Below are positions 33,252 to 36,182 of a stretch of DNA of 64,000 bases, one piece after another (positions within the stretch are counted from its first letter, which is position 1; the number at the start of each line of letters is the position of its first letter). Where the stretch lies: positions 1 to 64,000 of the forward strand of contig CAWVVV010000002.1 of assembly GCA_963933835.1 (NCBI GenBank). Reading direction: 5' to 3'. Under the pieces are notes generated by a model, which saw only the letters and a list, made by a program, of their open reading frames with translations, searched no databases and was not told the origin of the DNA. Source of the DNA: an uncultured Puniceicoccaceae bacterium. Its GTDB lineage: Bacteria; Verrucomicrobiota; Verrucomicrobiia; Opitutales; Oceanipulchritudinaceae. The position numbers and the translations under genes were made by a program.

Positions 33252-34418
33252 TCAGGATAATCGATCCCGATAGTCCGAGTATCCGTATCTCCGCACGACT
33301 TTGAAATCACGGTTCGTCGGATTCCAAGTCGCTAAGTGAGGATGCTGAATACCGTTAAAGGTCGTTGTCTTGACCATCGTGTAGTGCGCCATATCGCGAA
33401 ATACAACGCGGTCACCGATCTTTAGCGGTCGATCGAAACTGTATGCCCCGATCATATCGCCGGCGAGGCAGCTCAGCCCACCCAATCGACAGTCCCACAC
33501 CCGTTCTCCGGGGAGGGACGCATCCACGATCTCTGGGCGATAAGGCATCTCAAGCACATCTGGCATGTGGCAGGTCGCGGAAATGTCGAGGATCGCGATA
33601 GGCCCCTCCGGTGACGGGACAACATCCAACACCGTAGAAGCAAGGACACCGGTATTGATTCCAATCGCTTCGCCTGGCTCCAGATACACCTGTAGGTGGG
33701 GCCACTTATGGCGGAAACGCTTGATTAAACTGACAAGATGTTCGCGGTCGTACTTCGGCGCCGTGATGTGATGACCTCCACCAAAATTCACCCATTTCAT
33801 CTCAGGCAAGAACTCGCCGAACTTAGCCTCAAAATGCTCCAAAGTCCGGGCGAGCGTGCCTGCCCCTTGCTCACACAGGGTATGAAAGTGGAGCCCCTCG
33901 ATCCCGCTCAAATTGTGCCCCTCGAGATCAGCTCTCCGAATCCCGAGGCGCGATCCCGCCGCGCACGGATTATAAAGCTCCACTTCGACTTCCGAATACT
34001 CGGGGTTCACCCGCAACCCAAGGGAAAGAGTCTGTCCTGAATTCTGGATACGCTCTCGAAATCGCTCCCACTGACCAACGGAGTTAAAAGAGACCTGATG
34101 CGCAATCGGCAGAACCGCCTCGATATCTGCCTCTGAAAAAGCAGTTGCGTAGACATGGACCTCTTTGCGGAAAAAATCGTGCCCTAGTTGAGCCTCGTGC
34201 GGCCCGCTCGCCGTGACACCCGCTAAATACTCACGAAGAAGCGGAAAGGTCGCATGCATCGCGAAGCCTTTGAGCGCCAGAAGGATCTTTGCCCCGCTTG
34301 CTTCCTGCACCTCTCGGAGAAGCTCTAAATTCGAGCGCAACCGCTCAAGATCAACCACATAGCAGGGCGATGGCAGATCGCCGGGGAGCTTGGGGTCGTA
34401 TTTAACTAAATGATCCAT
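33252..34418 (-). CDS. nspC: Carboxynorspermidine decarboxylase
   Basis: LALKGF, GLHFHTLCE, GGGHHIT, EPGEA, CLAGD, YTMVKTTTFNG. Confidence 0.94.
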   Translation of the reverse strand: MDHLVKYDPKLPGDLPSPCYVVDLERLRSNLELLREVQEASGAKILLALKGFAMHATFPLLREYLAGVTASGPHEAQLGHDFFRKEVHVYATAFSEADIEAVLPIAHQVSFNSVGQWERFRERIQNSGQTLSLGLRVNPEYSEVEVELYNPCAAGSRLGIRRADLEGHNLSGIEGLHFHTLCEQGAGTLARTLEHFEAKFGEFLPEMKWVNFGGGHHITAPKYDREHLVSLIKRFRHKWPHLQVYLEPGEAIGINTGVLASTVLDVVPSPEGPIAILDISATCHMPDVLEMPYRPEIVDASLPGERVWDCRLGGLSCLAGDMIGAYSFDRPLKIGDRVVFRDMAHYTMVKTTTFNGIQHPHLATWNPTNRDFKVVRRYGYSDYRDRLS

Positions 34419-34434
34419 TAACTATCTTCCTTCC

Positions 34435-34494
34435 TCCTCATAACCCCAATCCCAATCTTAATCTTAATCTTAATCCCAATCCTAATCCTAATCA
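34435..34494. repeat. Hexamer array YAATCY x9 (left boundary)
   Basis: tcctca taaccc caatcc caatct taatct taatct taatcc caatcc taatcc taatca. Confidence 0.9.
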
Positions 34495-34925
34495 TCAACT
34501 AAACCTGAATCCCTCTCTTGCCCTTCATCTACAGACAATCCTGCACCATAGATTTCCTGCTCCTCTTGCACTGAAGTCCCTCCGTTTTTTCTGATAAGGC
34601 CAAGGAGCAGACTTACAATAGTGCCTAATTGTTCCTTACCCTCGCCAACACGTTCAGGCGACAGGAAGCCTCTTGCGACAATAACATCCAGGCACGCCGC
34701 ACATTCAAAAGCTGAACTTGAAGCAATCTGAAAGTACTTTGAGCGATCTTTGGGATAAAACTTGGCGTTCCCCTCTGCCAAATTGAGCGGCACACTTGTA
34801 GAAGCACGATCGAGTTGGTTCTTAACAGCTATCCCAGGTGTAAGTTCATCTAGTAGTTGCGAAACCCAACCAACAAATTCAATCGAATTCCTGTATGCCA
34901 AAAGCTTTTCGTGGGAGAAGGCCAT
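34488..34925 (-). CDS. Four helix bundle protein (23S rRNA IVS-protein family)
   Basis: FSHEKLLAY, QLDRASTSVPLNLAEG, IASSSAFEC signature. Confidence 0.92.
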   Translation of the reverse strand: MAFSHEKLLAYRNSIEFVGWVSQLLDELTPGIAVKNQLDRASTSVPLNLAEGNAKFYPKDRSKYFQIASSSAFECAACLDVIVARGFLSPERVGEGKEQLGTIVSLLLGLIRKNGGTSVQEEQEIYGAGLSVDEGQERDSGLVDD

Positions 34926-34934
34926 GAGACTATT

Positions 34935-34970
34935 TGATTAGGATTAACATTATGATTAGGATTCTGAGGA
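34935..34970. repeat. Inverted hexamer array (right boundary)
   Basis: t gattag gattaa cattat gattag gattct gagga is the reverse complement of the left array type. Confidence 0.85.
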
Positions 34971-34976
34971 AACCCG

Positions 34977-36182
34977 TTACCCCACGATCGGTTCTGGCTT
35001 CTTCTCCAAAACCGTTTCGATCCAAGGAAGTCCTCGCTTGTTGAGCTCGGCCATGAAGGGATCGGGATCGAATTCTTCAACATTGAAGACCCCTTCCCCT
35101 TTCCACTGGCCGTTCAGCATCATTTTCGCACCGATCATCGCGGGAACACCCGTCGTATAGGAAACGCCCTGTGAGTTTGTTTCTTCGAAGCACTGCTCAT
35201 GATCGCAAATGTTATAGATGTAATAGATTTTCTGCGCCCCATCTTTGATTCCATCTACGACACAGCCAATGCAAGTTTTGCCTTTTGTCGTCTTCCCGAG
35301 ATCACCTGGGTTCGGGAGAACAGACTTCAGAAACTGTAGTGGAATAATCTCTACACCATTGTGCATTACCGGATCGATCCGCGTCATACCGACGTTTTCT
35401 AAAACGCGTAAATGCGTCAGATACTGCTCCCCGAAGGTCATCCAAAAGCGCATGCGCTTGATCTCGGGTAGATTCTTCGAAAGCGATTCCATCTCCTCGT
35501 GATACATGAGGTAGATTTCTTTCGGACCGATCCCCTCCGGAAAATCAAAGGTGCGATGCACCTCGAGCGGCCCGGTTTCCTGCCAAGCACCCTCCTGCCA
35601 AAAGCGACCATTCGCGGTGACCTCGCGGATGTTGATCTCTGGATTAAAATTCGTCGCAAAGTGTTGGCCGTGGTCGCCCGCGTTGCAGTCGATAATGTCG
35701 AGCGTCTCGATCTGATCGAAGTGGTGCTTTTTGGCGTGGGCGGTAAAAACGTTCGTCACGCCAGGATCAAAGCCACATCCGAGCAGCGCCATGAGCCCCG
35801 CCTCCTTGAAACGATCCTGATAGGCCCACTGCCAGTGATACTCAAATTTTGCCTCGTCGCGTGGCTCGTAGTTCGCCGTATCGAGGTAGTTCACTCCTGC
35901 AGCGAGACAGGCGTCCATGATGTGTAGATCCTGATACGGCAGCGCGACATTGATCACGAGATCGGGCTGATGCTTCTTCAGCAGTGCCGTCGTCTCCTCT
36001 ACATTATCCGCATCTACCTGAGTGGTCTGAATCGGACGAGAGAGCTCTGCTGCGATGCTATCGCAACTCGATTGTCGCCGACTAGCTAAAATAATTTCGG
36101 AGAACGTTTCCGTATCCTGCGCACATTTATGCGCGACCACGCGGCCCACGCCTCCAGCTCCAATAATCAGTACTTTGCTCAT
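34977..36182 (-). CDS. Carboxynorspermidine synthase/dehydrogenase (saccharopine dehydrogenase family)
   Basis: GAGGVG, NVALPYQD, YLDTANYE, GFDPGVT, FATNFNPEINIRE; lies upstream of nspC. Confidence 0.93.
   Translation of the reverse strand: MSKVLIIGAGGVGRVVAHKCAQDTETFSEIILASRRQSSCDSIAAELSRPIQTTQVDADNVEETTALLKKHQPDLVINVALPYQDLHIMDACLAAGVNYLDTANYEPRDEAKFEYHWQWAYQDRFKEAGLMALLGCGFDPGVTNVFTAHAKKHHFDQIETLDIIDCNAGDHGQHFATNFNPEINIREVTANGRFWQEGAWQETGPLEVHRTFDFPEGIGPKEIYLMYHEEMESLSKNLPEIKRMRFWMTFGEQYLTHLRVLENVGMTRIDPVMHNGVEIIPLQFLKSVLPNPGDLGKTTKGKTCIGCVVDGIKDGAQKIYYIYNICDHEQCFEETNSQGVSYTTGVPAMIGAKMMLNGQWKGEGVFNVEEFDPDPFMAELNKRGLPWIETVLEKKPEPIVG

Follow-up and report, generated by a model that had tools for sequence, protein, structure and literature searches.

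The intervening sequence (IVS) in the 23S rRNA of Coxiella burnetii, as described in PMC4990558, is 428 nt long, has a 28-bp stem with tandem heptamers upstream of S23p, and is cut by RNase III at the first repeat. In the RAYT/REP system, as outlined in PMC2817692, a gene lies between inverted repeats, the repeats co-vary with the protein and the gene diverges faster than its neighbours. Convergent pairs of the heptamer GGGAATC, 70 of them in Xcc, were read as quadruplex-forming in the Xanthomonas study PMC4692102, in the main text of which a term search found no four-helix-bundle gene. Other repeats on record are TAACTGA repeats (PMC4679880) and GTAG repeats in O. terrae (PMC3733652); a term search of the latter report found no mention of the four-helix-bundle family. 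The family itself has been likened to Avd (PMC10053308), and its genes have been noted inside cas loci (PMC3936711). In Avd, five protomers are described as gripping flipped-out RNA bases (10.1101/2023.10.23.563531).

Here we analyse a four-helix-bundle gene that lies between inverted arrays of hexamers inside a polyamine operon. The locus is part of a real and widespread unit of which we found no description in the literature, and it is old at the polyamine site and not freshly inserted. In the freely accessible full texts searched, we found neither four-helix-bundle genes with such arms outside rRNA nor a tie between these genes and gene-less hairpins. The family, PF05635, is very common and has solved structures, and we know of no function for it; intergenic hairpins made of 6-8-base tandem repeats have been catalogued as well, to our knowledge with no cause assigned. 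The pairing of each protein clade with its own repeat opens a direct binding test for the function of PF05635 and for the origin of the hairpins, and offers a candidate origin of ORF-bearing rRNA intervening sequences. What the polyamine locus contributes is a junction seen both filled and empty, hairpins lacking the gene elsewhere in its own genome, a paralog whose arms differ, and evidence that conservation concerns the motifs of the arms more than their base pairing.

The cassette in the polyamine operon and its protein

The window (the whole stretch of 64,000 nucleotides that was analysed) belongs to the genome referred to here as G000. On its minus strand the order is synthase-like gene, pyrimidine arm, four-helix-bundle gene of 145 aa, purine arm and nspC. 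The features are the following:

34977..36182, minus strand: upstream flank, carboxynorspermidine synthase-like gene (saccharopine dehydrogenase family), from a profile search
34935..34970, minus strand: upstream arm, six hexamers, in sense TCCTCA GAATCC TAATCA TAATGT TAATCC TAATCA
34488..34925, minus strand: four-helix-bundle gene, 145 codons, PF05635/TIGR02436
34435..34493, minus strand: downstream arm, eight GATTRR units (34446-34493) and two degenerate units
33252..34418, minus strand: downstream flank, nspC, carboxynorspermidine decarboxylase, profile score above the cut-off

The synthase-like flank scores 397 bits against NF043000, which is below the cut-off of 800, and contains saccharopine-dehydrogenase domains. 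The upstream arm begins 7 nt past the stop of this gene (34977) and ends 9 nt short of the ATG of the small gene (34925), and the downstream arm ends 16 nt ahead of the nspC ATG. The arms are of the type (TAATCN)n on one side of the gene and (NGATTA)n on the other.

Most of what a sequence-only reading had said of this layout was borne out. The 536-bp segment between the synthase-like gene and nspC holds a single gene, and as a cassette it is free of a transposase, its one ORF matching PF05635 alone. Both of the hexamer strings quoted were located (34435-34470 and 34935-34970), the proposed inverted-repeat ends rank first among the inverted repeats found around the gene (35 nt, 80% complementary), and the segment is more AT-rich than its surroundings, with a GC content of 43.8% versus 54.6% and 48.9% in equal-size flanks. 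Two statements need correction. The overlap of the left array with the stop codon is real, but the stop (TAG, 34488-34490, within the first unit of the downstream arm) lies outside the quoted string, the array being longer than the six units given. The ends, described as in register, are indeed complementary, but several pairing registers fit because the arms are unequal (6 versus 10 units).

The arms at the polyamine locus exceed chance: the inverted-repeat score is 18, compared with a maximum of 11 among 200 control ORFs, and arrays of at least four GATTRR-like units occur three times in the whole 1.94-Mb genome, the one at the polyamine locus included. An Rfam scan gave no match at the locus, rRNA included, and the gene-less copies described below matched only plant and animal microRNA hairpin models, far below threshold. 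Promoter and terminator signals in the scan were no better than chance. A Shine-Dalgarno motif was found in none of 30 family loci and in 53 of 621 controls, a result that is uninformative because the controls rarely have the motif either.

In profile searches the 145-aa protein matched TIGR02436 with 62.3 bits (cut-off 24) and PF05635 with 64 bits (cut-off 33.8); its nearest named relatives are in Opitutales genomes. The predicted model (pLDDT 88) has four helices spanning residues 5-113 and a low-confidence, acidic C-terminal tail (9 D/E, 1 K/R), and the core is not net basic (13 K/R, 12 D/E). When the model was used in a structure search, the best ten matches were chains of 2GSC (Xcc0516) and 2RLD (BT_0352), with Avd weaker; the best chains among Xcc0516, BT_0352 and Avd (PDB 2GSC, 2RLD, 4DWL, 8UB7) gave an rmsd of 1.1-1.9 Å. 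The structural kinship of the family to Avd, as stated in the sequence-only reading, holds for the fold of the model, and its tie to 23S rRNA intervening sequences holds as well, the cargo of the Coxiella IVS being described as a member of the same family. The Xcc0516 and BT_0352 structures contain five chains each, and by analogy with these and with Avd we infer a homopentameric ring for the 145-aa protein.

Arms and gene-less hairpins across genomes

Using identical windows, inverted arms above the maximum of the 200 control ORFs were found in 71 of 86 family loci, a set that includes the polyamine locus and its paralog, two further loci having been dropped because their flanks were too short. 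In a larger set, scored more loosely and run without a control, arms were present at 138 of 159 loci. One protein clade (support 0.996, 83 of the 159 tips) contains 67 of the 68 hexamer-armed genes; outside it are 53 heptamer-armed, 13 octamer-armed and one hexamer-armed gene and nine genes without arms, so that 66 of the 67 armed genes there have 7- or 8-mers. Repeat-unit length follows the protein clade. The comparisons show that the arms travel with the gene family and that gains and losses at gene junctions involve the entire unit.

The neighbours of the unit are diverse. A neighbour scan covered 74 of 108 candidate flanks, from 41 loci, and the 32 hexamer-clade loci with Pfam-labelled neighbours lie in 22 different neighbourhoods, some of which recur within families (comM-like/KDO8P-synthase-like 3, radical SAM-TRAM 4, coaBC-like/PAS kinase 4). 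The unit therefore relocates over long times and stays put within lineages. The idea of a discrete gene-plus-arms unit stood up well, with an empty allele in the same genus and clade members at about 20 other junctions. The upstream arm lies a median of 15.5 nt from the start codon (30 loci), and 6 of the 164 collected gene copies are broken.

Additionally, many clade members were observed in which the ORF extends into the downstream arm and ends in a tail of the EDEDED or EQEQE type (L061, L064, L067, L074, L075, L104 and L105), so that the arm is independent of its coding content. No clear residue-to-base code was found within the hexamer clade, the best residue columns reaching p ~5e-5 in an uncorrected comparison of 57 sequences, with kinship as a confounder. 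In one gene outside the hexamer clade (L245, G185:C8) the arms consist of GATTAG hexamers and the purine arm leads; either another subfamily has arrived at this motif or the arms were swapped. Copies lie stacked among several arrays, some of reversed polarity, in certain Verrucomicrobiae and Acidobacteriota genomes, with up to four copies per genome (L066, L068-L073, L076-L079).

Paralogs had been expected to carry flanking inverted microrepeats, and the second PF05635 gene of G000 (C1:432573-432869, between two ABC ATPase genes) does have its own inverted arms, made of heptamers. The junction that holds this paralog in G000 (L057, G000:C1:432.4-433.0 kb) is empty in G002, G003, G013 and G358. 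At the same junction in G001 there is a GxxExxY gene (TIGR04256, a nuclease family) with its own inverted arms of about 9 bases (L412:2186-2689, minus strand, G001:C462), directly preceded by a remnant of 15 bases that exactly matches the beginning of the heptamer arm of G000.

Two gene-less hexamer hairpins, a feature missed by the sequence-only reading, are present in G000, the arrays C1:449584-449625 and C5:36407-36460 being halves of them, with the pyrimidine arm first:

G000:C1:449584-449670: gene-less hairpin (L422), starts at the stop codon of an exosortase-like gene and itself provides that codon
G000:C5:36310-36460: gene-less hairpin (L423), starts at a stop codon and follows xerC

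Relatives have no arrays after xerC or the exosortase-like gene, and their neighbours there differ from those of G000. At the position after xerC, G001 (C24, L424) carries a different type of repeat, which is GC-rich, tandem and REP-like. In genome scans, 51 of 53 and 44 of 60 hairpin sites passed. The stems of gene-less hairpins measure ~31-33 nt and the loops, which are unrelated in sequence, ~19-26 nt, and the pyrimidine arm came first in all 44 scored, matching the polyamine locus, while the reversed control pattern was nearly absent from the scans. The orientation of the genes around the copies varies between genomes. Four hexamer hairpins with similar loops lie ~1.6-2.1 kb apart in one genome (L399-L402, G235:C1:228-234 kb), and were perhaps duplicated along with neighbouring genes.

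It was shown that most occurrences of gene-less hairpins built of the same hexamer are in genomes having the gene. The array pattern had 142 matches in G358, 24 in G001 and none in G002 (91% complete, with the empty site). Of 300 genomes of the class, 36 have a close gene (E at most 1e-18) and 264 do not; by hand count, four-unit GAKTAN arrays were present in 18 of the former and 19 of the latter, giving an odds ratio of 12.9, which is an overstatement because the genomes are related and the gene's own arms are counted as matches; at least 10 matches were found in 10 of the 36 and 7 of the 264. This co-occurrence is a trend rather than a test. Many genomes with the gene and no such array have other hexamer units. 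Nine genomes with arrays and no close gene were checked: seven have other PF05635 genes and two have none, and among the genes fetched from them only one has hexamer arms of the polyamine-locus type. Array-positive genomes of this kind count against a strict tie between gene and hairpin.

Age and history of the polyamine junction

The junction was compared in relatives by searching 61 genomes, of which 42 have nspC; 30 loci, including that of G000, were compared. The synthase gene lies upstream of nspC in 25 of the 29 other loci. One of these 25 junctions is filled (G001), 21, that of G002 among them, have a short gap or none, and three have other inserts, one of which is a gene-less hairpin of a different repeat unit. 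In G001, which belongs to the same genus, the protein is 53% identical and the arms are longer and made of related hexamers. A protein search yielded a third filled allele, in G358 (L062), with 54% identity. The empty allele of G002 is again from the genus of G000. This nearest empty allele is ~79% identical in protein, and the junctions are too diverged to align; for that reason, and with arm length and unit varying between the filled alleles, neither exact ends nor a target-site duplication can be read.

The trees of both flanks place G358 outside the group formed by G000, G001 and G002 (support 0.99 and 0.975), and the junction is thus filled in three of the four closest genomes, outgroup included. 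A recent insertion into the polyamine operon is not supported, given this distribution and the fact that low GC is a family trait. The most likely history is a single old gain in the ancestor of G000, G001, G002 and G358, inherited and then lost in G002, and one gain with one loss is also the simplest. The proteins of the three filled alleles do not group in free trees, and their monophyly was not rejected (AU p=0.42, with 24 sequences and 5000 replicates, below the number advised by the program). Replacement of the cassette at this junction was considered and rejected, as it rests on the ungrouped proteins, whose monophyly is unrejected. AT-richness was likewise discarded as a sign of recent transfer: by GC content the ORF falls within the bottom 0.9% of G000 coding windows, but a GC content below that of the flanks is seen in 94 of 107 family genes.

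The small gene diverges faster (53-54% identity) than its flanks (66-83%); nspC is 66-79% identical across the compared genomes, and the small ORF is intact. A metagenome scan with the N-terminal half of nspC gave no close relative (identity at most 61%), and among 80 metagenome loci the synthase lies upstream in 16 and the small gene in none. Moreover, inspection by eye of two distant genomes (L030, L139) revealed gene-less hairpins of other units at the synthase-nspC junction, which suggests that it has been used repeatedly by such elements.

Explanations of the arms and comparison with known systems

The cassette could be an mRNA counterpart of the rRNA IVS, in which the arms pair, RNase III cuts the stem, the RNA of the small gene is freed and the synthase and nspC messages are split, the gene-less hairpins being processing sites. 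We consider this a minority possibility. In the predicted RNA fold of the locus the arms pair (z = -2.1), with ~24 of the 36 upstream-arm bases paired, and the arm alignment gives 28 Watson-Crick pairs, 3 G·U pairs and 4 mismatches on the sense strand. At this locus the sense duplex is stronger than the antisense one (-36.6 versus -28.9 kcal/mol), and therefore the stem can form. The Coxiella IVS, described as having a 28-bp stem, tandem heptamers, the same family and a cut by RNase III (PMC4990558), speaks for the same account, as does the presence of an RNase III gene in G000. So does the constant length of the arms, about three helical turns: they measure 33-35 nt for 6-, 7- and 8-mers alike (5.5, 4.8 and 4.4 units), and because of this similarity the rule of five units, the commonest arm (38 and 52 of the 84 gene-less hairpins), is inseparable from a rule of length. 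However, arms kept for pairing in mRNA should show more G·U than A·C on the sense strand, and in three data sets they did not: the counts were 153 versus 199 in 138 cassettes (hexamer subset 51 versus 58), 7 versus 26 in 19 co-directional gene-less copies, and 15 versus 17 in 25 further ones, the strands of gene-less copies being called by a codon model trained on G000. An antisense wobble excess seen in the second set was dropped when it failed to replicate in the other genomes of the third. Transversions make up 490 of the 842 arm mismatches, which also speaks against pairing. With the 84 gene-less hairpins aligned from the loop, no compensation was seen at the free base of the unit, which matches across the arms in 34.1% of 375 unit pairs versus 33.4% after permutation, and whole units match in 23.7% versus 20.5% (p=0.049). 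In-register matching reached p<0.05 in 17 of 109 cassettes, versus 7.6% expected with the register optimised; it gave p=0.02 by arm swap and 0.12 by unit permutation in the gene-less copies, and was not significant at the polyamine locus (p=0.21). Given the modest in-register excess, pairing between the arms is not irrelevant. A few copies are perfectly matched between the arms, and these and the modest excess fit either weak selection for pairing or repair of quasi-palindromes. Loop-out of the gene in the mRNA, one of the two roles proposed for the arms from the letters alone, is possible by folding but has no signature of selection on sense-strand pairing. The evidence suggests that what is conserved in the arms is the motif more than the base pairing, and an IVS-like account leaves unexplained why the repeat unit tracks the protein clade.

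Alternatively, the gene could encode a regulator that binds RNA, has been domesticated and has a regulon: the ring would bind the purine array in transcripts, would govern its own translation as well as the stability or the termination of hairpin-bearing messages, and would be kept by the host and not self-spreading. This would agree with the retention of the site, with an intact ORF, over deep divergence of nspC, with both gene-less copies of G000 beginning at a stop codon (one of them providing it), with the closeness of the upstream arm to the start codon and with the reported binding of RNA by Avd (10.1101/2023.10.23.563531). We nevertheless think it unlikely: the neighbours have no common function, the gene is patchy (36 of 300 genomes) and outpaces its flanks in divergence, some copies are broken, the paralogous junction holds another cargo gene, which has arms of its own, and gene orientation around gene-less copies differs among genomes. 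An ordinary accessory gene next to microsatellites grown by slippage, inverted by chance, is very improbable. The repeats are simple and the number of units varies among G000, G001 and G358, but the frequency of inverted arms above the control maximum, the clade-specific units and the uniform polarity of the gene-less hairpins have already largely refuted it.

The explanation that we prefer, and to which we give about an even chance, is that the locus is a long-resident copy of a widespread unit, a gene between inverted arrays that are likely bound by its own, probably five-membered, ring protein. By analogy with Avd and its five protomers, one ring would read each arm of about five units as a sequence motif. 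The hairpin would then be mostly a by-product of two inverted arrays, and the gene-less hairpins would be non-autonomous copies of the unit. Inverted, motif-conserved arrays are what two protein-bound ends would be expected to look like, as in RAYT/REP, but the 145-aa protein lacks the fold of a nuclease. New copies would be rare and the enzyme would come from outside the cassette; neither a reverse transcriptase (PF00078) nor a Y1 transposase (PF01797) was matched in G000 (97% complete). The GxxExxY gene at the paralog junction is a hint of a helper enzyme. The stability of sites across whole families fits a kept host gene equally. More tentatively, and on balance doubtful, the whole may be an undescribed class of nuclease-free selfish units, in which the ring protein of each PF05635 subfamily has a specific 6-, 7- or 8-base motif, which it recognises in two inverted arrays of five units, and thus seeds and maintains gene-less intergenic hairpins in many bacteria; ORF-bearing rRNA IVSs would be copies landed in 23S rRNA, and GxxExxY cassettes, which share and swap junctions with the units, could supply cutting. 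The polyamine locus looks old and quiet, an example of the class rather than a proof of mobility.

Compared with known systems, the unit shares with the Coxiella IVS, as that is described, the family of its cargo, a similar size (536 versus 428 nt), terminal inverted repeats of ~30 bp and short tandem repeats right before the ORF; an S23p-family ORF within terminal inverted repeats able to form a stem is what is found at the polyamine locus. However, it lies between protein genes, with no rRNA match there, whereas the IVS lies inside 23S rRNA; its repeats are hexamers and not heptamers, and gene-less copies are dispersed in the G000 genome. With RAYT/REP, as reported, it shares a gene flanked by inverted repeats, co-variation of these repeats with the protein, faster divergence of the gene than of its neighbours and, with the caveat of kinship, an association of gene presence with the abundance of gene-less repeats. 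Its protein is an all-helical bundle and not an HUH/Y1 tyrosine transposase (PF01797 is absent from the G000 matches), and its arms are tandem hexamer arrays, whereas REPs are described as short palindromes. The gene-less hairpins resemble the Xanthomonas elements, reported as dozens of intergenic pairs in which two short tandem arrays are inverted relative to each other. Avd has the same four-helix fold as the 145-aa protein, but identity is 6-7%, and the latter has a core that is not net basic and an extra acidic tail; unlike in a diversity-generating retroelement (DGR), PF00078 has no match in G000 and the flanks are polyamine genes. Set against insertion sequences (IS) and MITEs, the cassette encodes no transposase. 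By its defining features the unit is not an IVS, RAYT, IS or DGR; it is RAYT/REP-like in layout and IVS-like in cargo.
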